64,000 nucleotides of DNA from Psammoneis japonica (lineage: Eukaryota), in the NCBI GenBank assembly GCA_008632985.1, contig QPGO01000042.1, positions 62,001 to 126,000 of the forward strand, given 5' to 3'. Position numbers and translations under genes: made by a program. The notes under the pieces are model-generated. The model was not told where the DNA came from and ran no database searches. It saw only the letters and a program-made list of their open reading frames with translations. Positions 24,950-47,373 of the stretch are shown piece after piece (positions within the stretch are counted from its first letter, which is position 1; the number at the start of each line of letters is the position of its first letter).

Positions 24950-25399
24950 CTTGAGATCGACTGTTGCTCCTTTTTTTTGTGCTTTTTAGTGTGTGGCTGT
25001 GTCGCTTGATTTGTGAGATTTGGGGGGTCGCGTTTGTTTCTTAGCGCGCGGGGGAAGCGGGAAGTCGCGCCGCATTCGAGCATTGACTGGTTCTCAGCTA
25101 CGGCACCCACTCGTACAGGACTCCTCGTACCTTACGACAGCGCATCCTGCCGCCGCCGCCTGGTGTCGCTTCAGTCATGCTTTCCAAGTCAGATTTTCTG
25201 TTTCTTCTTTGACCTTGTCTTCCCTTTTTCTTTCCCTTCCTTTTCTTTGTCATTTTTGCCCGCTGTGAGAGTTCCTTTTTTTTAGTGTGCCTCTCCTTGT
25301 CAAGAAATGACTCTCGCAGCTGAATTTCGTCGATGGCACTGTTTTTCCCTCAAAAAATGAAGCAGCAGAGGGAGTGTCCTTGCGACGTCGGTTTGACAG

Positions 25400-26480
25400 A
25401 CTTCACCCAGCTTGAAGGAATCATGCTTCAACCGAGGAAGTGGCTGCACATGTGTGGCTTTCTTGTGGATCTTGCTTGCCGTGCAGATCAAGCCCAAGCA
25501 ATTTTTTGCAATCCAAGAAAGATGTTGGACGCCACAAACTCGTGCACATGAAAACGTTGCTGACGAAAGCGCAGCTGCCCATCATCTGCAAATGTCAAAG
25601 AGTTCACATGTGGAAGAGCATCTGTGCTTTTTGCCCAAATCAAAACTGTCTCCGCCCCAAGCCACCCACATCACTTGGGGACACACCAAGGGCTGGGACA
25701 GAGTGTCGCAACAGCCGGCAGAAAGGGGTTGTTTTGCCGCAGTGTCAGCAGCACTGCCAAGGGCTGGCACACACATGAGCTTCCCAGCCCAAAGTTTTTG
25801 CAACAAGCAACCAAGCCTCAACTTGTTGAGCCATTGGCTGTCCCATGTTTTGCACACAACAGGCAACAGCACACACCTTTGTGCTGCAGCGCAACGTTGG
25901 TGGAGTCAGGACGGCTTTCAAGCTTGCCTCTGACATGGAGATCACTCTGGCATCATCAATGTGGACCTGAAAAAAGTGTCCATGATCATCATGGCCAAAG
26001 ACTCCAAACTGGGCTGCACTGCCCCACCCTCCTCCAACAAATGGCTGAAGTCACGCTGAGCTGCTGTGTGCTGCCACATGACTGTGTGATGCCACAGGGC
26101 ATTGTTGTTCTGGATGAGCCACACACAAGACTTGTCAGGGACCTGGTTTTAGCTGTGCAGTGCCATGCTGCATTGTTGATCTGGGCAAGCCTTTCAAGAC
26201 TTGTTGGGAACCTGTTTTTGACAGCTTGTTTTGCCCTGAGAGTTGCTGCATGGCTCTGCCAGCAGAGCGTTGATTGGATGACCCCAAGGACACCAAGCAT
26301 TCCCCCAGATGAGAGAGTGTGTTAAAATGGAGTTGATGACATAAACACATTCAGTCTGTGCATCTTCAGCACTGCACAGAAGAGATTTGTGGTGGGAGGT
26401 CAATGATGCTGGCAGCACTGTTTGAAGCCCAAAAAACCTGCCAAACTTGGCAGCCATGTGTGCACCAGAGGTGCCCAGGC
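25400..26480 (+). mobile_element. Possible relic of non-LTR retrotransposon 3' region (RNase H / Zn-knuckle)
   Basis: Only weak fragments (QLPIICKCQRVH, NVADESAAAH, CGPEKSVHDH, CWEPVFD), in an order resembling LINE RNase H-CCHC tails. Confidence 0.25.
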
Positions 26481-29299
26481 AGGGGGTGTGGCATGCTGCA
26501 AGCTGGGGACAGCTTTGGGAACAACACCAACCCATCAAGCCAGGCAGCAAGTGACATGGCATTTTTGACTGACATTGTCAGTTGTGCAACTCCACATGAT
26601 TTTTGGCAGTGCCATCAGAAGGAGGAGCAGTCACCACGCTTGTCCCAACAACCCAAGTTTCTGTGAATGAAAGAGTGCATGATGACCCCCCCCCCCCCTG
26701 TGCACCCAGCACTTGTGAGCACCTCCCAGGGATGCTTGGCTGTGGCTGGTGCTGTGGTGCCTTTTTGTGTTTTGGAGTTCCCACATGCCTTTGAGTGCCA
26801 TGTCAAGCTCAAGCACAGAAAAATTGGGCACTCTTCTTTTGGACACTCTTGGTGTGGTGAGAAGATGGCCAAGCTTGGGACCCCAGAGCCACATCATCAT
26901 TTGGGGATCATCAGAGGGTGCAATGTGGTGGTTTTCACTTTCCTTGATGCCCCAAAACAATGGTTGGTGTTTTTGTTGTTCTTTTGAATGCAACAAATGT
27001 CATCAAACATGCATTTAACAGTGCACTTTGTTTGTGTGTTTCTTCTGAAGTCTTGTCAATGTTTTTCATCAAAAAGCTTCAATCAAGAAATGCATCCAAT
27101 TTTTGTTTCAATTGGGGTTGGCACCTTTTTTGCAATGAATGGTTTAGTTTCTTTTTCATGGTCATCAACTGAGCTTGGTTTCAGCTTTGTCTTCCCCACT
27201 CACATGCATGTGTGTCCTTGCTTGTGTGCAGTCTACCTCAGGCACACACTTTCCCACTCTTGCTTCTTAAATTTTTCTTCATGCTTCCCACAGCCCGTCA
27301 GTCTGTGGTGTTTTCTGCATTTTTTCACATGCACAATTTTCTGCACACTTCATGACAGCACACCCTCTCCTCCCCAAACATCAAAAAGCATGAATGTGTG
27401 CTGTTGTGATTTACATGCATTCTGCGTGTTGTCGCAAATCTGCAACTCAACAACCTGCCATGGCGGTGAAAGACTTTGCCCCATGGGCCAATGACAGCAG
27501 CTCAATGCATCATGAGACCTGCTCCTGTCCTTCTGGTTGGTCAAGATGGGTTTTGATTGAGGTGTGTCTCTAAAGTTTTGTGGTTGCAAGAAGTGTGCTG
27601 TGACAAATCTGTCAAAGAACAATCACCCAGAATCTAGAATGACAAGCCAGCATGTCATTGCATGTGCACACATTGCAAACTTCTTTTCTGCACCATTGGT
27701 GCAATCATCATGCATGTCAGAGTTTTGCATCTAGAATCATTGCAAGTTGCCACAAATGACACAGTTCAAACAAGGCATGTGCAAAAAGAGGTTTGTTGGT
27801 TTTTGATGCTTCTCCAATTTTTTTGTGTCCAGATCCAGAAAGAATTCATCAGTGGCAGAGAGTGGTGGAGGCAACCGTTGGAGGTTGCCTGAGTTGTCAA
27901 GTTCATTTCTAAAGGCTTCCCTCCCAACAAGTCTCTCTGCTGTTTCTGGTCCATGCTCCAAATGTTTCATCAATGAACCATCCTTGGCACAGAAGGTGTG
28001 GGGCAAACACTTGACCCTCCTTGTGACTTGTCATTCGCACAGCTCTTTGTGCAGTGTGGCACACATGCAGGCAGTGCTTGTTCAAATGGCCATTCTGGCA
28101 AGGGCATTTTGTGGCACTTGAGATGTTTTTTTTTGCTTTCTTGTGTGCCATCTCAAGCATTTCAGTGTTTTTTTGGGGGGGTCAAAGGGGTGGAGGTGAG
28201 TGCTCAACATTGCACAGCAGTGCAAATGTTGCTCCGGAACAAGCAGTGCTGGATGCAAGGGTGAGTCTGTGTTGCCATTCCTTTTGGTCATGTTGGTTTA
28301 TCCATGTCACACTCTCACTGCATGTTCTGCACTTTTTGGCAATGAACAAGGTGGGTCAGAGCAACAGTGTGCTTCAAGAAAGATGACTGCAGCTGCTGTG
28401 ACAAGCTGGTGGGCACCAGAATTGGCAGCGGCAGCAGTGGACCCAACAGCAAGTCTGTGTCACTGTTTCTGTTGGTTGTGTTGGTTCATCTGCATTGCAT
28501 GTGCACTCACAATGTGTTCTGTGCATTTTGGCAATGAATTGCTTGAGTTCTGTGTCTGCTCACTTGTGTGGATCATTCTCTGGGGTGACTTGATGGGTGT
28601 CTCTCATCAAAAAGATGATTGGAGCTTGGAGGTTTTTTTTCTTGGCAGTGAGTGCCAACTCTTTGAGCTTGCCCATTTCATTTTTGGCCCCATTCCAAAT
28701 CTTGTGTTCCACCACTCTCTGCTTTGTTGGTGGTCGCATTGTGCAGTGAAACAGCTCTTGAGTTGCTCGCTTGTTGCACCAGTGGTGTTTTGGCTCCTGT
28801 TGTGGGCCAGTGTTCTTGCATCCTTACATTGCTAAAGCAAAGGTGTTTGGGTCATGCCTCAGGGCCTGCAGTGGTGAGTTTCAGTGCAGTCACCTGACCT
28901 CCATTGGTCAAATGCAAACAACAAAATAAAACAATGCAAATGCTTTTGATTTGCAGGTTTTGTGGGGATGGAGGGTGCACACACTCACAGGGAAAATGGG
29001 TGGCTGTTTCACAGTGAAACATGTTTTCCTCACAGGGGGGGGGTCAGACCCCCCACAGCATAAAAAATTTGTCTGATGGTCAACACATTGTCACCACATG
29101 CACAACACCAGTGTCCCATTGTGGCACTCATCTGTCACCCATGAAAAGGTCAAAAATCCCTGTGAGAAAGACACAACCTTGATCACTGCAACTCAGACTG
29201 TGATGATCATGTTGCAGCTGCCTTGCAGCATGGCTGGGACACAGGGCTTGAGTTGTGCACAGCAGATCTAGACATCTGGGCATCATGCAAGGCAACAAA

Positions 29300-30560
29300 G
29301 TCAGGCAGTGCTGAGCACCAGAGATGACACTTGCTTGTGTGAGCACACATGGATGAGACCTTGTGTGTGCCTCTTGTGACCCCACCCCTTTCACTTGTGA
29401 CCCAAAAGCAATCATGGATCATGTGTCTGCAAGTTGTGCACTTGAGAATGGAAGTGTCAAGGAGCTGGAGGAACACCTTGGTGTGCAGATCTGTGAGCAC
29501 AGCAGGCTGTTGGGCACAGATGGCAAGATGCACTGGGCAACATCTTCTGACTTGTGAGTCAATGGGGCATGAAACTGAGCTGATGATGAGTGCTGGAAGC
29601 TGCCTTGGAGTCAAAGCTCTGTGCATCTGAGCTCAGGACACTGACCTGAGTTGGATGGCTCACCTTGGTCAGACCAATCAGAGCAGGTTGATTGGCCACT
29701 TTCAAGCCTTGTGAGGTTGCTCTGCTGGACAGCAAAGCTTGGGAGGACTGACATTTTTGTGCCTGCATCAATGCTGGCATCTCACCTTGCAGCACCCCAA
29801 GTTCTTCAACACACCTTGCAGCACCCCAAGTTCTTCAACACACCTTGCAGCACACTGGTTCTTCAACACCCACCAGGTGAGGTGCTCCACATGTTGTTTG
29901 CCTGCTTGGGATCACACTCAAGCACAGTGTGTTTGACGAGACAATGCAAACCAACCAACCTTTGAGGAGAGGCAGGACCAGTGCATTTGCCAAGTGCGGC
30001 AGTGGGTTTGAATTTCACCTGGCGTGGAAGCACCAAATGTGCTGCACACACCAGAGATGCACACAGAGGCACACAGCACCATGCACTGTGCCAGCTGATG
30101 ACACACGCAAATGTGATCAGCATGTGTGGTGTGTCTGCATGAAAAGGGAAACAAGTCACATGTCTGTGGATTCAAACCCAAGATCTTGGTCATTCTTTGG
30201 TGACTTTGCTTTTGTGCGCACATTGCACATTCCACCCTGCAATGTGCTGCACTCTGTGAATCATGCTCAGTCTTGTGCTTTGTGAACACTGGTCATGCCA
30301 GATGATGTGTGTGGTGTGTGGGTCCCATGTGCTGGAGGTTCATTGTTTCATCACAATGTGCTTGACTGTTTTGAACTCCTCCAAATGGCAAGATGCTGTT
30401 GAGTTCTTCTCTGCATTTTACACCCAATTTTGTTGCACAATCAAGAGCTGTGCTGTGGGGCAGGTTGAAGCTCTGCAGCACAAGCTTGACTGGCATGCTT
30501 GGCATCCCTGTCAATGCACCCACAAACAATGTGTTTTGTGACAACAAAAACTGGGCCAGA
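29300..30560 (+). mobile_element. Decayed Ty1/copia (CoDi-like) pol: reverse transcriptase and RNase H relic
   Basis: Collinear motifs: HMDE at 29346 (=YVDD), DPKAIMD...GSVKELEEHLG, WATSSD, LCWTAKLGRTDI..ASMLASHLAAP, LHMLFACL, SKWQDAVE, VEALQHKL, GIPVNAPTNNVFCDN. Confidence 0.85.
29783..29868 (+). repeat. 29-bp tandem repeat, ~3 copies
   Basis: caccttgcagcaccccaagttcttcaaca x2 exact, plus a third diverged copy. Confidence 0.9.
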
Positions 30561-32264
30561 TCACAAGCAGCTGGCAAATTGTGCATGCTGCTTTCTTGGA
30601 TGTAAAAATTTGTTGGGTGCATCAAATGAGTTGATGCCTGCCTGGACAGAAGCTCCTGAAGAGTTGATTTGATGCATCTTTGTGAGTTGCATCCAAGTCC
30701 ATCTGAAAAGGAAGACAGGTTGAGCAGGTTTTTTTTTAATTGTCATTGTTTTCTTTTGCAATTTGAGGAAATGTGTCCCTCTGGTCATCCCCAGAATGGG
30801 GCAGCAATTGGGCTCCATTTTCATCTTGCCAAAGCCAGTGCATTGGCTCATGGGGACTGGACAAATGTGTGTGTGTGCTCACATGAAGGTGCAGTGCATG
30901 TGGTGTGTGTTGATTTCTCCAACCACATTTCATTGATGCCTCCATCTGTTGTGCCAACAGCTGTTCTGACCAGACTGGATGGGCCTGATGCTCTTGCAGC
31001 TGCAGAGCTTGTTGATTGCCATGCTGCATGAGCTGTTTGTTCCTTTGTCCATTTTCATTTTCAAAAACAATCACCCCCTGATGGCATTTTTTCTCACCAT
31101 GCATTGACCACATGAGGACAACTTTTGTGCTGACAATGCACTGCACTCACTGCAGCCATTCTAAGCTCATGTTTGCATTGAACAATGACAAGCTCTGTTT
31201 TCGAAGCAAGGCAATTGCTCCAACTTGGAAATCCTTTCAAGAACCAGCTCTCTGGCAAGTGAGCATGCTGGCAACATCTGCGCTGGATTGCTGAAAAAAT
31301 GGTGGAAAGATGTGGTGTGCACCACTGACCACTTGGTCAGGTTTTCAGCCTGACGCCACTGCAACAGAATCATGACTGCACAGGTGCTGGCTGCTCTTTT
31401 CACTCCATTGGCTTGGAGGGAACAATGTGTCACAAGGCATGCCGAGCCATCATCACAGCTGAGTTTGCAACAAACACCGGCCACCATTCCCTTTGCTGCT
31501 GCAGAATGATGATGGCTGCTGAGTGCCCAACAAAAGAGAGTCTGTTCTTCTGCAAGAAATTGCTGAGCCAGCTTTTGCTGTCTGCTTGCTTGAGCTGTCA
31601 TTCTGCACTGTTCCTCCTTCATCTGCATGCTGTTTGCTCTTGCTTGCAAAAAGTGTTTTGCTGCTGTGCTGCCAACTGAGGCAAATGAGTCACACACATT
31701 TCTGGGTTGCTTGTTCTTTGTGCGGCACAGATCAGAGACCAACAGGATGAGCAGTCTGTGCCTCCCCTCCTTGCTCACACAGGGTTTTTTCTCACGGGCT
31801 GCTTCCACGGGCTGTTGTGAAAGCAGCGCAGCACCCCGCAAGCACCCAGAACAACCTGCAGCAACCTTGCTCTTCCTCTTCATCAATGTCACATTGCACG
31901 TTGACAAGCAGAGAGCAAGTTTCACTTGCAGCCCATGCTGCCCTCGGAGCTCATTCTCTGGGTTCCCCACAGAAGCAAGCTCCTCATTGAGGTCTGGCTC
32001 TTTGTGGCTTGCACCACAACCAACCAGAGAGCTCTCCAGGGAAAGAACTGGCCATGAGAGAAGACAAGGTGTTGAGCAACAGAGGGCAATCATCAGGCAA
32101 TTGAGTTGCTTTCTGTTGTTGCATCCCAAGCCTTCAAACTCAAAATGCTTTGATGAAAAACATTGCTGCTGGCTCTCACAAATGTTCATTGGCCAACAAA
32201 GGTTCTTGCAAAAAAGCATCTGACAGAGCTGTTTGACAAGAACTTCTGGACATGCTGAGCAGTT

Positions 32265-35116
32265 GGACACTTGTCTTCAGAGTCTTTCAAGGGCAAGTCA
32301 CAACTCAGATTTTTTCAGGAAAGTCATCTCATTTTAAGATGTGCTTTCAAACCATTCACCAACCACTCTTTGTTTGCCACACCAATGGATTAGAGTGGAT
32401 TTTTTCACGCAGTTGAATGAAAGCAAAAAAAATTTGCCATGATGCAGGCATTGTCTCTTTGCCATTGTTGCAGAGGATGCACACTGATGAAACACTTCTC
32501 TTCTTTTGGAAATGACATTTGGAGCAGGGTGGTGTGTTTGAGAAACTCCAGCATTGAATCATGGGTGGGTGGGGGGCAAGTGGCAAAAAAATCCATGCAA
32601 GCTTCCATTTCTGCGTCAAAGCATGAGTGGCATGCATTGTTGTCCCTTGCATTGTCATGTGTTGCTCCCCACATTTCATGCAATCCCTTGGCATTGCATG
32701 CTCACCCATCATTTTCCATCTTTGCATTCACTCATTTGTCAGAATGGTGTTGCCATGCTGTGGCATTGCTTGTCACTCTGATTCAGACACCAACCAGCAC
32801 CAATGCTGGGGGAATTGTGAGGATGCACACCAACAACAAATCACTCTTGATTCTTGTTGAGGGGTGGCACAGATTTCTTGTCTGCAGTCCATTGCGCTTT
32901 AATTTGCCCAGTTGTTTGCTGCAGCACCTCAGTTGTGCACAATCACATGGGTTTTCAAGTGATGCTTGTGTTTGACCCCATTTTGATTTTGCCACTTGTT
33001 TGTTTTTGTTCTTTGTTCCAATTTTCTGGTTGCTGTGACAGACCCTCATTTTCATTTTCAACATTTTTGTTTCAAGCTGGTTGAGACCTTTGAGCAAGGA
33101 AATTCTCAGCAGCAACAGACTTGTTCTGAAATCATGATCACACCTGCTCCCAACAAAGAATCTGTTGCTGAATTGCTTTTGAAAACAGAGCATGAAGTCA
33201 ATGTTGTGAAAAAGGCAGCTCAATCATCATCCACTTCTTTGCCATTCTAAAGAGGTGACTTGGCACTGCCTTGGCTGGCTGCATTTTCTGGGAGGCTCTC
33301 CAGAACAAGAGCCACAGGCAGAAAGCAATTTCTGATGTCAGCAACAAGCTCTGTCATGAAACCCTCTCCAGCATCAGGAAGGACAACCTTGAAGCTGGAG
33401 CATCAACCAGGCAGTTGAAATGGTCAGCTCCAAGTCTTGGAGCTTGCTGCCACTGTCTGGATGGCATGTCCTGCCACCAAGACAGAAGCAAGCATGCCAG
33501 TGAGCTCTTCTGACAACATCAGAGGTTTGCAAACAAGCTTGTCCAGCTCCACAGGAGCCACCTGCAAAGGTTGACCACAAGAAGAAGTCCAAAAGGCTGA
33601 GCAAGAAGTCCAAGAGAAACCAGCCAAGAAGGGCTGGTGGAGTCTTGAAAGTGGTGGCAGCAATTCAAAAACTTTGTTGGGCACTGCTGGAGCCAACCAC
33701 AGGGGTGTCACTTTTTCCAATTCTGTGGTAGACACCAACCCTGTCTCTCTCTTCTGCCAGCCTCTCTTCAACTGATGGACACATGGGGGATTTGTCTCCA
33801 GAAAAACAGGGCTGGTGGACCAATTGTTTGGTTCAAAAAGGATCAGCTCCCATTTGGTTTTTTTCATTTGTTTTGCACTCAAACAGTCTCTTGTTTTCAC
33901 CATGCAACAATTGTTTCTCAAGCTGTGTCTCCATGAAGGGGCTGATGGAAAAATCAGCTCTGTCAATTTACACAAGTGCAACGCTGAAGGCAAACCAAGG
34001 GTGGCATGTGAGCTCATGTGTTGGAGACAGGCAGAGGTGGTTTTTGATGCATTCTGTGTGTGTGCCACTGTGTGCTCTGTTGCAACCAAGGAAATGTCCC
34101 ACTCAAAAGCACTTTTGTGTTCATTGTTCAAAGTGAGTGATTCCACAGTGAAAAAATCAAGTTTTCTGATGCACACAGTTGACCCACTGAGCCCAAGAAG
34201 CTTCCCTTTGTCTCCCCCCTTGCAGTGGCCCCAACAAACCCATTGCTTGCATCTGGGAGATCTTCCTGTTCCACAAAAAAGCAAACTTGCAGCAGAAAAG
34301 TTGCAAGAGGATTTTCTCACTGTCTTGGTTTTCTGGTCTTGCAATGGGCTGTGAGGGACACACCTTGTTTTGAAGGAACAAAAAACAGCATTGAAAGTGT
34401 TGCTGCTCTGCACATCACTGCATTCTCCAAGGTTCATGTGTGTCTCTGCAAAAACATGCACAGGATGTTGTGCTGTGAGGTGCACAAACAAAGAAACACT
34501 TTGAAAGAAGAAGCTTTGGCAGAGCTGCAAGCCCACATTTCTGTGCCCCAAGTCAGTCTTGCGCAACTCTGTTTTTGACCATGGCTGGCTCTGGCAGGTG
34601 TCCTTGTGTTGGCAGCAGCATCACTGCCCATTGTGCATGCTGACAAGCTGCAAAATGTTTGCTCTGTCTGACAAAAACTCCCAAGTTTCAAGTCCAAGCT
34701 TGAGCTCCAACACAAAAATGACACATGGGCTTGTTGATGGGAGCAGCACAGCTGCTGACAGGGGCAACCAAATGGCAGGCCATGGCTGCTCCTCCTGGGC
34801 CAAAGCTTTGCACATCACCCACCATTGATGTTTGCAGTGCCATCTGCGCCCATGGCAACTTCTCTTGATGGTGGGGGCGAGGCCATTTGCGAAGCTGTCA
34901 GATTGGCAGATTGCACAGCCCTGTTGTCACCACCAACTCAGATGGAAGAGCCTTCCAGATGGATCCCAAGAGAATTGCCATGCTCAGTTCCAACTTCACT
35001 GTTGAATCATGCGGACACTTGTCTCTTGTCTCCAGAGCAATTCAAGGGCATGTCACAGTTCAAATTTTTGCAGAAAAGTCATCTCATTTTGAGATGTGCT
35101 GTCAAACCATTCACCG
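32265..35116 (+). repeat. Dispersed ~100-bp direct repeat pair (~32265-32360 and ~35012-35116)
   Basis: Both read ggacacttgtct...ttcaagggca.gtcaca..tca.attttt..ag.aaagtcatctcatttt.agatgtgct.tcaaaccattcacc. Confidence 0.85.
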
Positions 35117-35756
35117 AACACTCAAGTTATCTTGCCATGTAGGTTCGCTGGCGACACCTCTCAACAACTTGTCATCAAAAGCTTTCTTAAGGCTTTGAAA
35201 CAAACAACATCCACCAACGCACACCACACTGTGGAGATTTTCTCGGGGATGGACATTTTGGTGACAGGAAACGTTTCTTTGACGACGCCTCCTCTGGTCC
35301 ACAATGCAGAGAGTGTGGGCCCTACTTAGGCCCCTCTGTTTCTTTCTCTAGAGGCTAGCTAGCGCTCACAATGTCAGACTGAAAGAATGTAACATATAAC
35401 ATTCCTCGCGCTCCTTGCACATAAAAAAGTTAAACGTCAACTTCTGGTTATAAATGTTAGCAAAGAAAGTTTGCTCGAACCTTGCCCTCAACTTCCATAA
35501 CCCACAGGGTCGTTGCGATAGCTTTGCCATAGTTGATGAAATGGGATGTTTCGTGATACGCTACAGGTCTTCCATGAGTCACAATCGCTCCAACGAAACC
35601 AGGGCGTAGCGAGCTTTCGACGTTGGATCGGGTACAACACAGTTTTTGAACCAGATGAACTGGGAGAGGCCAGCTCCTCAAGCTCCTTGCTCCCCACAAA
35701 TCGAAAGCCAAAATACTATCTTCTAACTTCAGCGCTGGAAACAACACTCAGAAAGA

Positions 35757-37063
35757 TCATCTGCTTGACTGCAATACTGGAGGTGAGTTGCCGCCATCGT
35801 TTTCCGTCACCTGAAGTTGCGACATTGTCAACCAAATAGAATTTTCGTCGTGATACTTCACAACTTTCTCCTCATCTTTCGTGAGCCACAAGTCACCCCA
35901 ATCCAACCCAGTGCGTTTGAGCTGCAATTCTGTGCTTTTGCAGAATTCAGGATCCCACTGAGCATGAAGTTTGCTTGTAAGCATTGGGGCTCTGAAAAAG
36001 GATGGTTTAGCTGCAACATGAATGCATTCTCGACCGAAAGACGAAGCTATTTGTCTAGGCAGGACTTTGTCAATTGGTTTCACAACGTAGCATCTCATGC
36101 GCTTTCCCTTCCATAGGATAGCTCCTACGTCGTTCCGAAGTGCGGCAAGCAGTTTCTCCAGTCCCTCCTTCGAAATCCAGTACGCGTATGCTCCCCAGAT
36201 TGGCTGGCCACCTGGTTTTTCGTGTGGTCCAGTAGATTTACCGGGTTTCTCTCCTGTCGCTTTTATCTTCTCCGTTCCTTCTTTTCCGTCAATCTCGATG
36301 TCAGCAGGGGTTGGGAATGGAAAGAACGAACTGATCTGGCGGTTTGCTGTTTCGTGCTTGCGCCGAGCAAATACGTCCAGAACCCATTTTATGTTTGGTA
36401 GAGAACCCAACCATCCATAGTAACGCAGATGACAGCTGCTCTTGTTTCGCACCTCCCACTCTTTACTTGCCGCTAACGTGGCCCAAAATCTCTCATAGCA
36501 TTCAGAACTAGAAGCGGGATCATCGGGATTCAGTAGCTTAATCGGAGCGCGGACGTTATCCTCCAGAATAAAGTCGAAACCTCCAGCCACACATTTCTTC
36601 ATTGCCAACAGATGCGCCAGTGTACAAGCAAGAAAGCACGACCACGGTTCACTGATTTCGCCTTCCTCCAGAGCTCAACGCTATAGTGCAATTTTACATC
36701 GAAGTCGCTGCCCTTTCTATTGGGAACAACAGACACGTCTTTCAGGCATTCAAAAAAACGATCGGGGTGATCTTGATACTCCTTCGTGCTTTGTCCTTGG
36801 ATGAGTGCGACCCATTCCTCGTGAGGCAACAAACCTGCACTGTTGACAATTCGAAAGAACTCCATTCTATTTCGCAATGAGCGTGATGGTATGCCCTCAC
36901 TAAAAACGGGAGATTCAAAATGACGAGCCAATTCAGGCTGAGAAAAGAGTTCCTCTATGTAAGACTGCCGTTCTGCGCCCATCGTAATCACCAGCGGCTT
37001 CAATCTTCGGGGTGAAGCTACCACATTGTCGTTCTCTACGACGGTCTCGACCTTTCGCATCAT
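35757..37063 (-). CDS. Glycosyltransferase family 25-like protein
   Basis: PLVITMGAERQ, FDFILEDNV, WGAYAYWISKEG, KPIDKVL; two ORFs joined by a frameshift near 36635. Confidence 0.55.
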
Positions 37064-37229
37064 AGCAAGTGACAACTGTGGTGGGCCTCGGGCACTAATC
37101 GAGAGGAGGAAAAGCGGAGGCGTGAAAAATGATCCAAAGGGGAAAAGAAAAGGTTTGCAACTTATTGCCAATAAGACGGCTGCCGCCATTTTGCTGCGCG
37201 CGGGTCGCGGTCGCGGGTTGCAGCATTAC

Positions 37230-40200
37230 CAGTGCGGACGAACTCCACATCCGCTCCATCCATCCATGCCATGCGATGCCATCCCGCAATCAATCAGAAT
37301 GTTCAGTGATGTCCCACTGCCTCAATGACCATGCTGCAACTCACAACGTGAATGACAGAGGAAAGGAAGGGGCCAGGGTGAGGCACAAAGACACGTGGCA
37401 GAGAGAGAAAGAGCAGTGTGCTCGCAGCAAGAGAGAGCAGCAGGAGGGAGAGCCCCCACAGGCACTCTGTCCCCTTTGTTGCTGACCTGCAATGCTGCCA
37501 GGGTGAGGAAGAAAATGGCAGAGGCAGCTGCAAGAAGAGCAGCAAAGAAGAAGAGAGAAATCTGGTGAAGAAGAAGAGGGGCTGCTCAGGAGCATGCTGA
37601 GGAGGATTTTGTGAGTGACAAAGATGCTTGGCGAGTGACGACTCTCTTGCTGTTGTGACAAGCACTTGTTTCTCTCTCTTTTGGCCCTGACATGAGTTCT
37701 GCACATGGCTTGTTGCTGTTCTTCCTGGATGCACTGGGCAAAAAAGCTACAAGAGTGTCAGAGAAGATGCTGACTCCAGCAAAAAGCTGAAAAGAAGAAA
37801 TGTCTGGACATCAGGCCTGACAGTGCAGATGGCATGGGCTTCCAAGAAGTTGTTCCCTGTGTTGTGGCTTTTGCCTCACCCATCAAAAAGAAAATTTTGC
37901 ATGGACAGAGCTGTGTTTTGCTTGTTTCTGGCTGTGAAAACTGCAAGGATGCACCCCCGCGGGAAGATGCCAGCTGAGTGCTTTGCTGTGCAAAAGACAG
38001 TGATGCCCGTCATGGCCATGCCAGGAAATGTGGTCATTGAGGATGCCGCTGACCCTGAAAGGCTCAAGGTTGCAGGCAATGCAGGCACAAGCAGGGAGGC
38101 AGCAGGGCACAAATGGGCAGTGGCAGAGAAGAGGATGGTCAGCAGAGGGCCCGGAGTGGCACCATGAGTTGGATGAGCACCAGAAAATGCAAGAGCACAA
38201 GAGACACATCAAGACAGGATGTCAAGATCACAGAAGACCATGCAGAGTGCTTGGGCCATGAAAAGGCATTTGAGATGACAGCAAGTGCAAAAAAGCCCAA
38301 GAACAAGAAGAGCACAAACAATGCATCATTTTGGACACAGGTCATCAACTTGAAAAAAATCAAGACCCACATGGCGACATTGACAAAATTTGTCAAGTGG
38401 CTTTGCCAGCATGACAGCCATGATGAGTGTGTGACAATGATGCAATGAACAAGCAAAAATTGGCACAACCAAAATGGTTTTTCTTTCCAACACAGCACAT
38501 GTCTTGTTGGCAAATGGGGAGCTCCCTTTCTTGCAAGAATTGCACACAGCATTTTTTGCAACAACACGTTCCAAATTGTGCCTTCTTGTGCTGAGCTCTT
38601 AAAAACATGCCATTTGAAACATGAGCCAACAGCAAAAAAGGCCATGCAATGTCTTGCACACCATTGCTCTGGGGTTGCTTTCAAACCATTAATGCCCTTG
38701 ACTCACTGGAGAGTTTTCAGTGCACCCATGTTGGCACACGTGTGCAGGAGGACACATGGCAGAGTTGCTGCCAGTGGTTTGAAGGGCTTGAGTGTGCAGA
38801 GCAGAAACTTCTGAAGTGACTTCTGATGTTGTTCTGGCCCAGATGGCAAATGGGTTTGCTTGAAAGAACCATCTGGGAGCACCAGCTGCAGTGCCCACAT
38901 GTGATGAGCATCTCCATTTTAAGCTCAATGGCTGCAACCACACTTGTGAATCAGACACCAAGAAAATGTGAAGCACTTTGCATGCTTGCCACATTTGGCC
39001 TGCCCCCTGCAAGAGAGTGCAGGATGGGGCACTGAGTCATGGGCAGGAGGACATGAAAAGCTTGTTCACCTGCAAGCAATGTGAGGTGCTGCACAGAGGT
39101 GCTGACAACTGGGCAACAAATGCTCACAAAACAAACCACACAATGACTTTTTGCACACCCTTTTTGAATCCCATTTTGTCTTTTTGTCCCTGGTGGCAAG
39201 AGGGTGAAAAAGTGAACTTTGGCAAGGGAGCACTCAATGCTTCATCAGGGAGGTTCTTGACAATGGGCCATCCAAAGAATGAAAGAAATGTTCAAGGGAG
39301 GAACAAGCAGCAGTGGAGTGAGAATTTTGCCTTTTTGTGCTGATCTGTTAAAAAAACACAATCTGAGACATGAGCTGACAGCAAGAGGGGCATGCACTGC
39401 CTTGTGCCATTGCTCTGGGACTTCAAGAAATCATTGATGCCCAATGTTGGAACACAGGAGGGCACAAGGAAGAGTTGCTGCCAGGAGGACACATGTGGAA
39501 GAGTTGCTGTTGCCAGTGGTCTGAAGAACTTGTGCGTGCAGAACAGAAACTTCTGAAGTGAGTTTTGATGTTGTTGTGGCCCATCTGGCCAATGGGCTTC
39601 CTTGAAAGGGCCCTCCTCTGGGAACAGCTGCTCAGCCTTTTCACACTGCTTTTGCTGCCCCCTGCTCATTTAAAGTTTGCCAGCACCACCCACATGTGAC
39701 AAGCATCTCCATTTTAAGCTCAGTGGCTGTAGCCACACCTGCCAGTCAGATGCCAGGAAAAGGTGAAGCAATTTGCATGCTTGCCACATGTGCCCTGTGA
39801 GAGTGCAGGGTGGGGTTCTGAGTCATGGGTTGCTGGGAAAACACGAAAAGCTTGTGCACCTGCAATCAACATGAGGTGCACAGAGGTGCTGACAACTGGG
39901 CAAAAAATGCTCACAAAAACAGCCACACAATGACTTTCTGCATGCCCTTGCCAAATCCTCTTTTGTCTTTTTGCCCCTGGTGAGAGGGTGAAAAAATGAA
40001 CTTTGGCAAGGGAGCACTCAAAGGCTTCATCAGGAGGGAGGTGACATTCTTGACAATGGGCTTGCCCATGAAATGAAAGAAATGTTCAAGGGAGGAGCAA
40101 GCAGCAGTGGACTGAGAAGAGCACATGCTCAAAATGGTCAAAGTTGGGTGATCACATTGAAGTGCTCCATTGCACCAATGAGTTTCAAAGTTGAAGCCAC

Positions 40201-42590
40201 ATGAAAGAAGAAACATTTTACAAACTTGTCGACACATTGCACAAGAGTGTCACTGTCAACCACACAACATCCAAGAACATGACTTGGGGGAAGTGCTCAA
40301 CATGTCATGCTGAGACATTGGTGTTGGCATGAGGGTGCAATTTCTTGGTGATGAGAGTTGTTCAAGTCTGTTGTGCAAACATGCATGAAATCCTCTGTTG
40401 CAAATTGGCAGAGAAAGTTGTCTTTTTGTTTTTGCATGTGTGGTGGGTGATTCTTCAGAACTGCACATCATCCTTCCAATTGGCACTTGGGCTGGACTGT
40501 CATGTTGTGGGTGCAGCTGACCAATGTGGCTGTGCTGTGCTAACACAACAAGCTTTTCGACATTCACAGTCCTGGCAATCACACCCCTTCTTCTTTGGAC
40601 ACTGTGAGAGGTGTGGGGCTGTTCAGGCTGTCTGCCCACAGCACCAGTCTTTGCTTTGTTGTGCTGAGGACAGTGGTGGGTTGCAGTGCCACTTTTTGGT
40701 TGGTTGGCGAGAATGAACACTCTGAGCAGTTTGATGCTCATTCCTGCAGCAGTGGTGCCAAAAAGCACAAACCCTGCAAGCAAAGCGGCTGCAGTCTGCC
40801 ACAACAACGCACTCACACAGTGATGTTTTTGCAGATGGGCAGCAGCCATTTGGCACAACTTTTGCTGGAGCCTTGACTGCTCTGTGGATCTTTGCTCTCT
40901 CACTGCTCATTGTGCAGCAGCTTTGCAAGGCTTTGTTGTTAACAATGAAATCTCAAAATCATTGGTGATGACAACTTTGAGTCTCTTGAGTTCAAGCAAC
41001 TTGTGGGCAGCCCCAGGCCCAATGGCAATCAGGGGCTCCTTTTCTTGTCCCTCCTCTTCTCATCAAGCAAACAAGGAGAAATGCACATTTCATGGAAATG
41101 ATGCCTTCTGCAGATTGTGAGTTGGGGCAATGTGCCCCCCCCCCCAACAATCTGGGGCACAACATGGAGGTGTGCTGGGTGAGGAGAGATGGAGAGATGG
41201 TGCACACAACCCCAATGATGAGAATGTGGATGCAGCAGCAGTTGGCACAGCTTGGCCATTTTAGAAAATGTGCAGCACCACAACTCTGTTTTTTGAGTGC
41301 CTGCCTTGCTTTGGCCACATTTGGGTTGAGTGGCACATTGCAGTGCACCCAACCAACAACAAGCTCTTGCTGGCTTGCCAGCTCCCTGCTCCTGTTGTGC
41401 ACAGCTGCATTTTGCTGATGCCCTTTTAACCCAGCCCACTTTTGACATCTGCTCATCAAGGCAGAGATGGGGCTTTTGAGATTTCTTGCTCTCAGCGCAA
41501 CAGCCTCCCCACTTCAAGAAAGTCCTCAAGATTGCCAGCCCCTGCCGCTAACTGCGTGCCTCTCAAGAGTTTTCTTGCCCTTGAGAAACCTGCAACACAC
41601 CACACTTTGGCTGATTTTTTCTTCTGCTGTTGATGTGCTCTTTGGCCAGTGTTTTCCACAAGCCATGCCTGCAAGCAAGTGCTGCTCTTCATGCATCACA
41701 ACCCTGTTGGCTGGTGCTCAGTCATCATTGCCTCCATGCTCATGGCTTCATTCTTGGAATGTTGAACATCACCAAACAGTGCATTGATTGAGTGCACCCC
41801 CTGCCTCTTGGCTGACAGCTGCCTGCCAACCTCTCTCTCTTTTTTGCACTTTGTGGCTTTCCCTGGACCCTGGACGCCAAGAGCCCCCCGCCTGCTTTTT
41901 CCACTGCAGTCAGCTTTGTTGAAAGCAACCACACTCTCAAACACATCTTCTTTCTTGAGTTTGTGCATGTTGGCAAAAAACACATCCAACAACCTGATGC
42001 AAAAGAGAAATGGGCTGGCACAGCTGTCACACACAAGGGAGGATTTTTTGTGTCTTGCGCCGCGGCACCCCTTGGGGCAGATTGCTGGTGAGAATGTGCA
42101 AGGTGCTGCAGATGATGTGGTGCATTCTTTTTGGACAGCTCTGCTGGATTGTTGTTGATGGATGTGCTTTGTTTGGGTCAGCAGGCTGCAGGTTGGCTCT
42201 TGCCGCAGAGCTCGCTTCTTGTGCACCCCTCCCACCCGTCTGTCAGCCCCGGCGGCTGCAGCTTGTTCTGTGGTGCCATGGCTCCTCCTGACCAGCACCA
42301 CTGCATGCCACGCATGATGCAGGAGACGTGCCTTCTAGAGATCCAGTGCTGTAAACCACTGTGGCACGTCATTGAGGTGATGGTGATCCTCTGAGACGGT
42401 GGCATGGAATCACAAGGGACATTCGATCTTCGGATGTGCCAGTCAAAACGTGCAGGAATGCGGAATTTCCAATGTTTCGGATGCATGCCGTGCACACACG
42501 CACGCACATTGAACATTCAAGCACTGGCACATCAAACATCAGCCATCAGCCATCAGCCATCATCAGCACATCAACACGACAACATTCAAC
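37230..42590. repeat. CpG- and TpA-depleted degenerate repeat block 2
   Basis: Same TG/CA-rich composition as block 1, no intact gene, contains a ~770-bp tandem duplication. Confidence 0.9.
38575..40117 (+). repeat. Diverged tandem duplication, unit ~750-790 bp
   Basis: Shared words, e.g. gcatctccattttaagctca (~38909/~39702), gcacagaggtgctgacaactgggcaa (~39091/~39878), gttcaagggagga.caagcagcagtgga (~39290/~40084). Confidence 0.9.
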
Positions 42591-42685
42591 CCTAGGGCAC
42601 TATACTGGCGTTAAGACCTCGGCTTCATATATCTTCTCGACTTTAAAGCGTCATTACGACAGTGAATTTCAGCTATTATAAAACG

Positions 42686-44251
42686 ATGCTTGGATCACTC
42701 CCTCTTGGCCATGCCATGGCAATTGCATTATCCCTACAAGCATCGCACCATCGAGGGAAAGATACCGTTTCTCTCAACCCTTGGGGATGTTCTCGTTCCA
42801 ACCACAATGCCAATATTCGACTTCACTCGCACTGCGCTGTAAGTCCACCGACATCTCCATTGAAGTTTGCCGCAGGATCGTTAGACTCGGATATTGAAGC
42901 AAGCACGCCGTCTCAAGAAGACAATCGCTTGGAGACTCTTTGCAAATTCTTGGAGGCGACACCAGAAGATCTACTGAGGCTTCAGCCCAGTTCGGACGGA
43001 GTTCGTGGTGTCTACTTAAACCGATCGGTAAAACAGGGCGAAGTCTTGCTACAATTGCCGTTGGATTCATGTCTTCAAGATGACGACCCTCCCGAGTGGA
43101 AGGATTCTACTCCAGATGATTCGGAGAATGCAGAAGCATCCAGTTATAGCAACCCGAGTGAGTGGGCAGCACGTTTAGCGTCGTCACTTATTGATTTACA
43201 GCTCCAAGTGAAGCAGAACGGCGAGGTAGGGAAAGGCCATGCATTGTGGCTATCAATGCTCCCTGATAGTGCCTTTCTCCGCGCATCTCTCCCCGTTCAC
43301 TGGACTGACGAGGTCGTCACAAGCGCGAGGTGCACTGCATTGGAACTTGCCATGGATAGCGCATACTTTGCCAGAGCAGAGGCTGTTGAGGATCTCATGA
43401 GTGGCCTCCACCGCTGTGAGCTCGCACGACACCTGAAACTCACCGACGAGAATTTACGAGGAATGTGTCAAAATGCTCTCGATTTGGTCCAGACGCGATC
43501 ATGTCGGGTCGAACCCAAAGATGGGGCTCTATGGGGACCTCCGCTTCGTATAATGGCACCCATATTTGATTTCATTAATCATGGGTCGAGCAACAATAAA
43601 GGGGAAGGAGCGGCCAATGCAGCCTTCGAGTGGGAGGAAGTCTCGGATTTGAATGGTCCCAGCCTCGTCGTCCGTGCCACTGTTGATTTGGCTGCCGACG
43701 AGGAGGTCCTTATTGATTACGGGGAATCCGCGCGCCCTGCATGGAGATGTCTTGCTTCGTATGGTTTCGTTCCAGAATACAAAGATGGCGAAGAAGAACA
43801 CGTCGCTGAATTCTTTTTGGATGGACACCGATACGAGGTAAGCGCAACTACCGTCCCCTGTGATTTGGTGGAACGGGTTTCTGCATCTCTTAGAGAAGAG
43901 AATACAAACGTGGGCGAGCTGGACGACGTTGACAGAATGCGGGATGGCTCGTTCGACAAGGAAGTAGCAAAACAAAACAACTATGAGAATGGGCCACCAC
44001 AACCTAGCACAGAGGACGCAGAAAACATGTTAAACCCTGCAGTGGCAGTCAAGATCGCAAAAAGGCTATCAGATGTTGCTTTCCAGCTTTTGCTTGACCC
44101 GGAAGACCTGGAGGGAGAAACCGATGACGACGCGACAACACTGCGTTCAACATGGTTGGCAGCATCTCTTCGGTGGTCCCAACATCGGATCTTGTTAGCA
44201 TGTGCGATGGGCCTTCGTGATTGGGTAACAACGGGATCCGATGACGGCTGA
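42686..44251 (+). CDS. SET-domain protein lysine methyltransferase (Rubisco LSMT-like), probably organelle-targeted
   Basis: GVRGVY, LVQTRS, MAPIFDFINHG, EVLIDYG, LASYGFVP. Confidence 0.85.
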   Translation: MLGSLPLGHAMAIALSLQASHHRGKDTVSLNPWGCSRSNHNANIRLHSHCAVSPPTSPLKFAAGSLDSDIEASTPSQEDNRLETLCKFLEATPEDLLRLQPSSDGVRGVYLNRSVKQGEVLLQLPLDSCLQDDDPPEWKDSTPDDSENAEASSYSNPSEWAARLASSLIDLQLQVKQNGEVGKGHALWLSMLPDSAFLRASLPVHWTDEVVTSARCTALELAMDSAYFARAEAVEDLMSGLHRCELARHLKLTDENLRGMCQNALDLVQTRSCRVEPKDGALWGPPLRIMAPIFDFINHGSSNNKGEGAANAAFEWEEVSDLNGPSLVVRATVDLAADEEVLIDYGESARPAWRCLASYGFVPEYKDGEEEHVAEFFLDGHRYEVSATTVPCDLVERVSASLREENTNVGELDDVDRMRDGSFDKEVAKQNNYENGPPQPSTEDAENMLNPAVAVKIAKRLSDVAFQLLLDPEDLEGETDDDATTLRSTWLAASLRWSQHRILLACAMGLRDWVTTGSDDG

Positions 44252-44528
44252 AACACAGCTTTCGAATGTTCATGAAAACGCAAAGAAGGATTTTGCAATG
44301 TATAATAATTGTCTTAGTAGTAGAGCAAGTCGGCATGAATAAAACTTGTCAAGCAATTTGAGCCGATTAGAAACGGTTTCATTTGACACTGGAGCGAGTT
44401 ACCTTTCCGCTCGCAGGGGTTTTAGAAATGAATACATCCATAGCAAAAGTATACCATGTTCAAAACATTCGCCAAAAGAACGCCAGACGGCCGCAAGAGC
44501 GACAAGATAGGCAATTGATATTCACGTT

Positions 44529-44972
44529 TCACGTCGATGATTTCTTCAACTGCACTGTAGAGAGCAGTGAGACTCCAACCAGTACCAAGGCAAAGCCTAG
44601 GAACCACAAAGGGGTGACTTTCTCGCTCCAAAGGAATACACCAAACATCGCAGATGTTGAAAAATTGGCAGCCGACGCCAGAGACGTTGCTGCCACACTA
44701 CCGCTCTCCTGCATACCCTCCAAGAAAGTTCCAACCATTATAATATTCAGTGACACCATCAGAATCAGACACAGCCCTCGCGGAAGCAAAGAAAACTTTT
44801 GACATATCGCCACAGCGTCTTGATCAAGCGATGTCTGGTTGCCGATGGTTTCTTGACACAAACGTTGAGCCGCGGCGACAAGAGGTGATTCTGGTGACAG
44901 TCCATATTTTGCTAGACAACTCGCACTCGCACCCAACATTCCACTCAAAACTGCAAGGCGTAGAACTTTCAT
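44529..44972 (-). CDS. Small DMT/EamA-like membrane protein (TMEM42-like)
   Basis: LAVLSGMLGASASCLAK...SVAATSLASAANF..SAMFG..LWSEKVTPLWFLGFALVLVGV. Confidence 0.7.
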   Translation of the reverse strand: MKVLRLAVLSGMLGASASCLAKYGLSPESPLVAAAQRLCQETIGNQTSLDQDAVAICQKFSLLPRGLCLILMVSLNIIMVGTFLEGMQESGSVAATSLASAANFSTSAMFGVFLWSEKVTPLWFLGFALVLVGVSLLSTVQLKKSST

Positions 44973-45089
44973 CTTTTCTTTCGGGAAAGCTAACAAAAAC
45001 TACGGTAAGACAGCACGCGGTAACATCACCAATAAAAATAAGCCAGGCAGTGGACCCAGTCCGAAACAATGAAGTCAGCAGGTAAAAAG

Positions 45090-47290
45090 GCAAGTGACGA
45101 GCGTCCGTCCGCCTGTGGGCATTCTCGTGATTGCTGCTTGCTGCGATCCCCAAAATCTCGCCTCGACTGAGGCTCTCTGCTGGCCGCTCCTCTCTTTCTT
45201 TGACCTGGTCTGTCAAAATTCCAATGCGTGCTGGTGTTGCCACCCAGACTTGACTTGGAGTTCTTTCATGCATGCATGATGAAGGATTTGCCCAAGGCTG
45301 CCCCCTTGGCCCTGCCTTTGCTGCCAGCCTGGTCTCATCAACATCCTGCAAGCTGCCTCAGCACCCCTGTCCTTCCTTCCTGCCTTGTTGGCATGCCTTG
45401 CCATTGTGGCCATGCCACCCTGCCTTGATGCCTGTGTTGACCATGCCTTCCAATGCCAGTGCAACCTTGGCTGTGACATTGCCCATCACCTTTCCTCCCA
45501 TGCTTTGCAGCTTTTCTCTTCTCTCTGTGCTGGGTCCTCTCCCCCCCACCCCCTCTGCCAAGCTCCCCACAAGCTGCGTCACGTGCTTTTTCTGCTTGTT
45601 TGCCTTGATGGCCTCCTCCATGCCTGTCTCTGCTGCACCCCCCCCCCCCCATCCTTCTCAACAGGAGGCTCTTTAACTCTTTGCTGAGTTTTCAAAAATT
45701 GTTGTGGCTGCTTGTTTCACTCCATCATTTTTCATCAAACCTGCGCCACACAACATTTTTGCAGGGCCACAGGTCTTTTCAATCAACTCATCTTCATGCT
45801 CCATTTCCCACTTTGGTGCTTGAATTGTCCCCAAGATGGGAATGGAAAATGGAAAAAAATGGCTCACAAGTTGGACAGCCCTGCATTGGCTTGCCCCCAA
45901 ACTTTTTACAACAGATGAAAGGCTCAAAAACTGGGTGAAAATGCCCCAATGGCTGTGCACTGCTGTTGATGGCAGCTGGATTTCAGTGCTCAAAACTTGG
46001 GAGAAGATGCCCCTGCTTGACAGCCATGTGTTGCAACTCCTGTGGCTGCAGCTGTTGAACCACAAACAAAGAGAGTGACTGGTGGATGTGCCAGTGTCAT
46101 CTTTTTCTCCATTGTTCTTTGCCCAATTGTCTGTGTCATGAACTTCCACAGCAAGAAACAATGGGTCATCAGGGTTGGGCAACAAGACTCAGTTGATGCA
46201 AAATGTGGTGCTTTTGTTGGGTGTTGGATGCACACACTGTCTTGTGTGCCACCATCTTTGCCTCTTTGCTCTCTTTGTGCAGAGCACAACCAGGCCAAAG
46301 ACCTTTTGCATGCTCATCAGCATCTGGCTGGTCAGCATCACAGCCTCCTTGTCCTTCGGCCCTTTGCTGCCAGGATCTCTTGCTCAACACCAGCTCTTTC
46401 AAAGTTGTGTTTCTCCAGCTTTTTGCAAAGGCCCACAACCCAGTGCTGGCTGTGCCTCCAGACATTTGGGCAAGTGCCGTCAGCACCTGTGGAGCACACA
46501 GCAGACAGGTGGTGAGCAAGAGGGAAAAAAGTGTGGCGCGCAACAGGTGGAGGGGCCAGTGTCTCCTCCCAACCACACACACAGTCATCAGGAAGCAAGG
46601 GTGCATGGAAGCAGGCACAAGAAGGGTGTGAAAGAGAGGCGGCTCTCAGTTTCAGATCCAGCCCCCAGCAGAGTCACTGACTCAGAGAAGAGCAGCCAGG
46701 CACAAGAGCTTCTGTGGTTGAGGGGGCACTTTTTCTTCTTGTCTGAAGCAAGCCAAGGCAATGTCAGCAGAGGAGGAACAAATGGGGACTCAAAAGGCAG
46801 GCATTTGGAGAGGGCCAATGGTCTGAAGGACAGGAGCAAAGAAAAAGCATTGTGGACGATTGCACACTGGAAAGGGGGCACGCTGCATTTGAGGCCTGGG
46901 GATGGAGAATCGCAGTGGCGGCTCTGTCTGTGCTGTAGTAGACTACAGTGCGATGATTTGTCCTTGGCCAAATGGCCGTCATCTCTGTGTGCTCTGCAGG
47001 GCATCGGTGTCTCTACTCAACTGTAGTGAGCAGAGCACACTGTACTGTCCAGCCAGCCACGCCGCGCCGCGCCATGCATTTTGCCCTTCGTCTGTCACTG
47101 CCACCACCAGAGGACGACGGACAAGCCCGCCGCGCCGCAAGAGCGAAAAGTAAGTAAGATGCCGGAGTGTGAGTCAGCACGCCACAACATGATGACACGG
47201 CAGCGTCGATGTCTTCATGATGTGAGTGCATTAGTTCTCTCTGAAGAGGTGAAGGCAGCGCGAGACGTAAACGAGAAAACGTGAACAAAG
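45090..47290. repeat. CpG- and TpA-depleted degenerate block 3
   Basis: Same composition; core 45240-46850 has very few CG or TA; origin not recognisable. Confidence 0.85.
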
Positions 47291-47373
47291 AGAAAGCGTG
47301 AACGAACCAGAAGAATCTTGCAAGGAAAGGTTCCTTTGGAGACAGCGATCAGGAGAAGAGCATCAGTTCACCT

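Follow-up and report, generated by a model that had tools for sequence, protein, structure and literature searches.

The question raised by this locus is how two different dinucleotides, CG and TA, came to be almost erased from the same DNA when the genes beside it kept both. We analyzed 64,000 nucleotides of the Psammoneis japonica genome (GenBank assembly GCA_008632985.1, contig QPGO01000042.1, positions 62,001 to 126,000 of the forward strand), hereafter the window, to whose numbering all positions refer; an initial annotation had described in it three gene-free blocks nearly without CG and TA, close to genes with normal levels of both. The reading that we favor, with moderate confidence, is that non-coding relic DNA has been rewritten in place, near saturation, by two context-specific transition processes that both end in TpG/CpA, namely the decay of CpG and a TpA mutator like that of Bigelowiella natans. 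A TpA-specific mutator has already been reported once, in the available text of a 2026 preprint on this other lineage (Mettrop et al., bioRxiv 10.64898/2026.01.13.699255).

The blocks were scanned in 1-kb windows for observed-to-expected ratios (o/e) of dinucleotides. In all full windows (26001-34001, 38001-41001, and 46001) the o/e was 0.02-0.20 for CG and 0.00-0.11 for TA, with TG and CA raised to 1.5-2.5 in these depleted windows and a GC content of 0.43-0.53 (near 0.48); the windows flanking the blocks had a CG o/e of ~0.9-1.1 and a TA o/e of ~0.4-0.8. Pooled over 16,303 bases, the three blocks contained 99 CG and 44 TA, as compared to ~937 and 636 expected from the flanks, the frequencies in the rest of the window being 0.0575 for CG and 0.0390 for TA. 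This corresponds to a TA o/e of 0.04 and a TA frequency of 0.0027 in the pooled blocks, and the CG o/e was about 0.05 in the block core. When the edges were included, we counted 67 CG and 31 TA at 25290-35300 (572 and 678 expected), 56 and 18 at 37200-42600 (333 and 341 expected), and 48 and 12 at 45100-47300 (154 and 121 expected). Within block 1, the segment 29101-29880 had been said to hold 0 CG and 1 TA, and a recount gave identical numbers where the base composition predicts 51 and 46. The three depleted blocks and the normal composition of the genes close by were thus both borne out, by the scan and counts and by the flanks and inter-block genes, respectively. The block limits first given stood as to the blocks themselves and failed in one respect, the common edge, since the TA-free and CG-poor zones end at different positions (Table 1).

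The TA-free zone extended past the CG-poor zone by 60-800 bp at every one of the six block edges. One margin of block 1 (25315-25912) retained 20 CG and had no TA, and the right margin of block 2 (42204-42592) had normal CG and only 2 TA. The borders were sharp (within 60-800 bp) at each of the six edges, and the genes between the blocks were normal in CG and TA. Two further observations concern composition outside the blocks. At 24600-25130, which covers the 5′ end and the upstream region of a PUF-type gene, there were 2-5 TA per 200 bases, compared to 5-10 further in, with CG normal to high; this may be a spill-over of the TA process into the gene edge, or promoter composition. The region 9001-10000 had a GC content of 0.568, a TG o/e of 1.72 and a CG o/e of 0.67 with normal TA (0.59), unlike the three blocks.

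Several results bear on whether this composition arose by change in place. First, the combined frequency of CG and TA lost in the blocks relative to the rest of the window (0.0877) was nearly equal to the combined frequency of TG and CA gained (0.0892). When all CG and TA of the flanks were converted to TG or CA in silico, the other 12 block dinucleotides were matched within 0.80-1.27-fold, and the GC content of the converted flanks was 0.469 compared to 0.484 observed in the blocks. The leftover deviations (observed/simulated: GC, 1.27x; GA, 0.80x; TC, 0.85x; AT, 0.80x) may reflect a non-coding ancestor. Second, the two copies of an old tandem duplication in block 2 differed at 114 of 718 aligned columns (61 transitions and 53 transversions), and these included 10 double transitions between CA and TG where the transition rate predicts 1.19 (Poisson 5e-7), an excess of ~8-fold; the other three step classes were seen 1-3 times, with 1.1-1.6 expected. 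Such double differences are what an ancestral CG or TA would leave if it were resolved independently, to TG in one copy and to CA in the other, which would place the change after the duplication and in place. Third, the copies have ~7% transversion divergence and are still nearly without TA, which suggests persistent removal rather than a single burst. Fourth, contigs from a public sequencing run (X1, described below) differed from the window within the blocks at a small number of sites: among the 12 single-contig differences listed, with 25 further ones beyond these, five were between CG and TG or CA and one was between TA and TG. CG and TA together make up <1% of block dinucleotides, yet 6 of the 12 listed differences fell on them, and from these differences the process is probably still running.

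The changes also appear on both strands, since TG and CA were gained equally, with TG/CA counts of 1175/1105, 575/522, and 184/174 in blocks 1, 2, and 3, respectively. In the runs test, TG and CA were intermixed to the same degree as in the controls (z from −0.4 to −1.6), and the largest TG/CA skew over 500 bp was 0.29; this intermixing argues against tract-wise editing of one RNA or DNA strand and against runs of the kind left by repeat-induced point mutation (RIP), and fits independent single-site events. Taken together, the patterns in the sequence suggest that the composition arose by mutation in place. A second process, directed at TpA and producing A:T-to-G:C transitions on both strands, had been proposed in the initial annotation, and the frequency balance, the tandem copies, and the equal gain of TG and CA support it. 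Such a separate process is needed because CpG decay alone cannot remove TpA.

To describe the losses by sequence context, TA and CG sites were sorted into 10 flank classes, with expectations taken from the remainder of the window, and an additive per-strand loss model was fitted. TTAA was nearly spared in the blocks (15 seen, 19 expected), whereas ATAT, GTAC, ATAC/GTAT, and ATAG/CTAT together were seen 0 times where 235 were expected. The loss exponents for TA, ordered by the base 5′ of TA, were 3.13 for A, 2.27 for G, 1.28 for C, and 0.11 for T (likelihood-ratio test statistic, 87; 3 degrees of freedom), and those for CG were 2.08 for T, 1.34 for C, 1.24 for A, and 0.73 for G (29; 3 degrees of freedom), with TCG the context most lost and GCGC the least. 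The additive model fitted all 10 flank classes, for TA as well as for CG, and mutation kinetics would give such a pattern. The tetranucleotide excesses and the family variants gave conflicting hints as to whether the base pair adjacent to the determining flank or the distant one is altered. A T on the 5′ side shields TA yet sensitizes CG, and these differing flank rules, together with the wider TA zone at every edge, suggest two processes.

The alternative closest to these data is that one machine did both, that is, a single deaminase system (e.g., of the TadA/ADAT2 type) deaminating C in CpG and A in TpA, and we regard it as unlikely. CG and TA losses do share the same domains, and by their chemistry both events would give 5′-TG-3′ on the strand acted on. 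In DNA, amphioxus ADAT2 acts as a deaminase on C as well as on A, with a preference for 5′-TCG-3′ in the case of C, according to the available text of PMC10354150, and TCG is also the CG context with the highest loss here. However, the same text gives GAA, not TA, as the adenine preference of this enzyme (BjADAT2), the two zones end apart at all six borders, and the flank rules are opposite with respect to a 5′ T. In addition, CpG loss in methylated DNA needs no special enzyme, and the B. natans mutator spared C, with 230 of 231 mutations being A/T to G/C in the available text (Mettrop et al.). A wider version of this idea would give diatoms (stramenopiles) and chlorarachniophytes (Rhizaria) an ancient genome-defense module in common, one that marks silent or foreign DNA and destroys it through base editing. 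In this diatom, one deaminase machine acting at 5′-T-N contexts, and guided by the chromatin mark that also guides CG methylation, would hit C (TCG over other CG) and A (TA except TTAA) and so drive the palindromic pyrimidine-purine steps to TG/CA. We offer this as a doubtful conjecture.

In the two-process reading that we favor, the blocks would be domains of silent chromatin under CG methylation. Methylation of the DNMT5 type is plausible by analogy, as transposable elements of the diatom Phaeodactylum have their CG sites methylated through DNMT5, according to the available text of PMC9998398. CpG would turn into TpG/CpA through deamination of methylated cytosine, and TpA would turn into TpG/CpA by a process with the signature seen in the silent viral DNA of B. 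natans. Both processes would hit single sites on either strand, within domains bordered sharply by genes, and would apparently still be active, the TpA process acting over a slightly wider domain than the CpG process. The loss of TpA per strand would be set by the neighboring 5′ base (A > G > C >> T), hence the sparing of TTAA, and the rewriting would have been spread over a long time, almost to saturation. As for the chemistry, our leading guess is that the adenine in 5′-TA-3′ may be enzymatically deaminated to hypoxanthine, which would be read as G.

A different chemistry for the second process would be a modification of the thymine in TpA (5-hydroxymethyluracil, 5-formyluracil, or of the base-J type) that mispairs with G and gives T-to-C changes. 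Because TA is self-complementary, T to C on one strand and A to G on the other are indistinguishable, and both the 5-hydroxymethyluracil of dinoflagellates and the base J of trypanosomes reportedly favor T before A. On the other side, we know of no such thymine modification in diatoms, and our literature searches found no precedent for a mutator of this kind of at least 100-fold strength. We consider this version improbable.

It is very unlikely, in our estimate, that the blocks lacked CG and TA from the outset through ancestry or selection, for example by avoiding CG methylation and TA-reading factors, with no mutator at work. No less-mutated relative was found by self-comparison of the window or by protein searches with block open reading frames (ORFs) of 398 and 211 amino acids, and the few variants and loose ends available from other copies of a high-copy part of block 1 were likewise poor in TA, both of which would suit a composition that never changed. 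Such a composition does not account for the 8-fold excess of CA/TG double differences between the tandem copies, for the clustering of differences between X1 and the window on exchanges of CG with TG or CA, or for the survival of sites by flank according to additive per-strand kinetics. Moreover, three unrelated sequences have the same composition and stop abruptly at the borders of genes, and they carry no coding or RNA-family signal for selection to act on.

We likewise give very little credence to A-to-G changes arising in silent chromatin from error-prone repair synthesis of the polymerase-eta type or from ADAR-type editing of DNA in R-loops. Polymerase eta and ADAR favor A after T, which would suit TpA, and also act on A after A (WA targets; for ADAR, a 5′ U is about equal to A). 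The 5′ U preference of ADAR is also noted in the Discussion of the B. natans preprint (Mettrop et al.). However, AA and TT were not depleted in the blocks, where A after A should also be hit: the AA o/e was 1.27 in the blocks and 1.11 outside, that of TT was 1.25 and 1.17, and the observed/simulated values were 0.95 for AA and 1.14 for TT. Neither enzyme is known to leave TTAA almost untouched. Polymerase eta, named earlier as a candidate, therefore fits poorly with the data.

Whether the sequence is real was addressed with a second set of reads. Logan contigs from the public run X1 were aligned over 24501-44500, which covers blocks 1 and 2. X1 contained 0.89 of the sampled 31-letter words from 26000-35000, and its contigs, up to 10.9 kb in length, spanned all of 24501-44500 with 0-8 differences from the window per contig and a word depth of ~60-66, the same as in the flanking genes. 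No CG- and TA-rich alternative version at comparable depth was found among the X1 contigs. Insertions and deletions between the window and these contigs were mostly in homopolymers or in a (CA)n run, and because they sit in such places X1 and the window are seemingly different consensuses. A sequencing or assembly artefact, in which a long-read basecaller misread modified bases of the blocks as transitions, is therefore scarcely credible, for although these insertions and deletions would suit a long-read assembly and the sequence is present in one sample only, the contigs made from X1 alone reproduce blocks 1 and 2, so that basecalling error is very unlikely there and the route to an artefact raised in the initial annotation is closed for these two blocks.

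Some details of the reads are recorded here in their own right. Runs of 10-12 C lie at 26688-26699 in block 1 and at 41135-41145 in block 2, and at position 41134 an X1 contig was one C longer than the window, either a length polymorphism or an assembly homopolymer error. Contigs of a further run from the same sample (X2) matched the genic parts only (24501-24990, 35436-37151, and 42580-44500), apart from a 62-base partial match with 7 differences inside block 1 (31873-31934). X2 could be a transcript library, and the lack of X2 cover is no evidence that the blocks are silent.

What the blocks contain was examined by several searches. Among 143 stop-to-stop block ORFs of at least 70 amino acids no Pfam match was better than E=0.0067, a separate scan of 17 long block ORFs gave no Pfam match, an Rfam scan of the blocks gave no match, and a tandem-repeat scan gave nothing relevant. 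Two ORFs of 398 and 369 amino acids on the minus strand of block 1 were mildly longer than simulated ones (P about 0-0.005), as long ORFs are expected in blocks where TGA is the only stop codon left. The longer one had 0 homologues among 1.84 billion representative proteins, neither had a Pfam match, and with TGA as their only stop both were rejected as real genes. An ORF of 211 amino acids in the high-copy part of block 1 had 0 protein matches, and no other copies were found that way. Taken as a test for foreign DNA, these searches thus returned 0 of 143 ORFs with a Pfam match under the E value given and 0 hits for the 398- and 211-amino-acid ORFs.

Copy number was judged from X1 depth and from a comparison of the window with itself. 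The high-copy part of block 1 (Table 1) attracted many related X1 contigs that were 85-95% alike, as did some short stretches around 32 and 34 kb. Elsewhere block 1 was at single-copy depth, and so was block 2 almost throughout, with a small rise at 41.8-42.5 kb. The self-comparison gave only two repeat pairs, a 99-bp pair whose copies differ at TA/TG and CA/CG, among other sites, and the old tandem duplication, and it showed no similarity among the three blocks. As judged from their sequence, the blocks are non-coding relics in the nuclear genome, single-copy for the most part and repetitive in places; they cannot be recognized as transposons, and their origin is no longer legible.

The genes that flank and separate the blocks are listed in Table 1. 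The ORF at 35757-36674 is conserved and unnamed, and 29 metagenome loci contain related sequences (33-50% identity). The best named relatives of the adenosine-deaminase gene were those of the raphid pennate diatoms Seminavis, Cylindrotheca, Pseudo-nitzschia, Nitzschia, and Amphora (36-39% identity), in keeping with a diatom as the source of the window, and because the diatom relatives are named tRNA-specific adenosine deaminase 1 (ADAT1), the product looks like a housekeeping tRNA enzyme. Its closeness to the blocks is probably a coincidence.

Table 1. Positions of the depleted blocks, of repeats within them, and of neighboring genes in the window.
Feature	Position	Strand	Remarks
Block 1, TA-free zone	25134..35127	.	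One stray TA at 25283; 28 TA within 26150-33969
Block 1, CG-poor core	~25950-34846		Narrower than the TA-free zone
Block 2, TA-free zone	37228..42592	.	Two TA, at 42336 and 42352, by the right edge
Block 2, CG-poor core	~37286-42203		
Block 3, TA-free zone	45084..46935	.	CG-poor core ~45228-46856
High-copy part of block 1	27169..29169	.	X1 summed word depth 488-2,644, compared to ~60-65 elsewhere
99-bp repeat	32270..32368	+	Second copy at 35025-35123, at the right edge of block 1; 86% identity
Old tandem duplication in block 2	38574..40118	+	Copies 38574-39324 and 39323-40118; 74% identity with gaps
Flanking gene, PUF/CPL domains	23107..24949	-	Normal composition; left of block 1
Two ORFs (35757-36674 and 36599-37225)	35757..37225	-	Normal composition; between blocks 1 and 2
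SET-domain gene (lysine methyltransferase type)	42647..44251	+	Normal composition; between blocks 2 and 3
PhyH-family dioxygenase gene	47302..48498	+	Normal composition; right of block 3
Adenosine-deaminase gene (A_deamin, PF02137)	50886-51974	+	4 kb from block 3

A number of points speak against the reading of two processes acting in place. The direction of change is drawn from the frequency balance and the copy differences; the CA/TG double differences do not tell CG from TA as the ancestral step; and the direct evidence for TA is thin, amounting to two TA/TG-or-CA differences in the tandem pair and the one between X1 and the window. The flank-based expectations come from mostly coding neighbors, and some of the residual sites may be new mutations. 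The read check extends over blocks 1 and 2, and the one sample that contains the sequence is also the source of X1, which may be part of the assembly data and has no recorded library type. A foreign origin, for its part, is unproven at this locus because no viral or transposon protein signature remains, and B. natans differs in this. There was also no TA-free window in 175 kb of sequence from the 29 diatom-like metagenome loci, and the TpA process is therefore not evidently general in diatoms, although this sample, being small, gene-centered, and not syntenic with the window, says little. Finally, neither CpG nor diatoms are mentioned in the available text of the B. natans preprint, and its silence on CpG counts here as well (Mettrop et al.).

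Of the systems known, the decay of methylated CpG resembles the blocks in its conversion of CpG to TpG/CpA, which raises TG and CA correspondingly, in affecting gene-free DNA, and in the enrichment of differences between X1 and the window at the remaining CG. The blocks differ from it in that TpA is also lost and in that the CG loss is extreme. An environmental diatom-like contig (L020:501-2500, ~2 kb) had a CG o/e of 0.11-0.22 with normal TA (0.67-0.85), which is ordinary depletion of CG alone, unlike the blocks of the window, where both dinucleotides are lost.

Fungal RIP generates TpA by converting CpA, depends on duplicated sequence, and produces tracts with a strand bias. Like RIP, and like the TpCpG hypermutation of basidiomycete transposons (PMC3318451, available text), the blocks show regional transitions in non-genic DNA that destroy coding capacity, and TCG is the CG context most lost. 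Unlike RIP, however, TpA was removed from the blocks and not created, much of block 1 and nearly all of block 2 are at single-copy depth with only two repeat pairs in the window, and no strand-clustered tracts were seen. The terms RIP-like and repeat-induced fit poorly because the blocks are non-coding, mostly single-copy, and without strand runs; the initial description of a repeat-targeted, RIP-like system was thus not sustained, the blocks also being mutually dissimilar and without a transposon domain.

In Escherichia coli, a bias of very-short-patch repair has reportedly been proposed to deplete CTAG into CCAG/CTGG. That system is likewise tied to cytosine methylation and turns TA-containing words into CA or TG words, but it is bacterial, concerns longer words, and causes a modest depletion. 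In the blocks, CTAG was not a preferred target (survival of 0.09, compared to 0 for ATAT and GTAC). For amphioxus ADAT2, the TCG preference in the available text of PMC10354150 echoes the CG flank rule found here, whereas the GAA preference does not echo the rule for TA.

The closest parallel is B. natans. In mutation-accumulation lines of this chlorarachniophyte, two integrated viral regions accounted for 231 of the 302 point mutations in the nuclear genome, and 230 of these 231 were A to G or T to C; the authors place all these GC-biased mutations on TpA. Mutations arose at ~6e-7 per site per generation, ~1000x background, the larger target was single-copy and transcriptionally silent, 124 genomic clusters were TpA-poor and CpA+TpG-rich, and an ADAT2-like adenine deaminase was proposed as the enzyme (all from the available text of Mettrop et al.). 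The statement in the initial annotation that it knew of no description of such a pathway is therefore superseded, as the preprint reports A:T-to-G:C hypermutation at TpA only. Our literature searches turned up no account, for any diatom, of a joint loss of CG and TA or of hypermutation at TpA. If the reading is true, TpA-directed hypermutation is not limited to one chlorarachniophyte and also works in diatoms, a major group of primary producers in the ocean for which genetic tools are available. The window would then present the end state of the process, with CG and TA erased jointly and sharp borders at genes, and it offers testable handles in the flank rule (TTAA spared; ATAT, GTAC, ATAC, and ATAG eliminated), the spatial offset of TA and CG, and the signs of ongoing activity, all of which constrain the search for the enzyme and its dependence on CG methylation. 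It also calls for caution in annotation, as blocks with TGA as the only stop give long spurious ORFs and would hide viral or transposon ancestry.

As in B. natans, TpA appears to have been turned into TpG/CpA on either strand, as read here from the low TA o/e and the near equality of TG and CA, and AA/TT and AT were not depleted comparably to TA, which points by composition to a restriction to TpA. In both cases, too, the effect is confined to certain regions with the rest normal, including the neighboring genes here, single-copy DNA is affected, and the affected DNA is TpA-poor and CpA+TpG-rich, with many of the affected sequences lacking annotation (Mettrop et al., available text). The rate was measured in B. 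natans, whereas here it is inferred from composition. The host here is a diatom, and the TA frequency of 0.0027 compares to 0.033 in the nucleocytoplasmic large DNA virus (NCLDV) region of B. natans, as far as the preprint text goes. Overall, what is new here relative to the B. natans case is near saturation, the coupling of TA loss to a near-total loss of CpG, the absence of any remaining viral or transposon signature, and a flank rule that spares TTAA, for which the available preprint text describes no counterpart.

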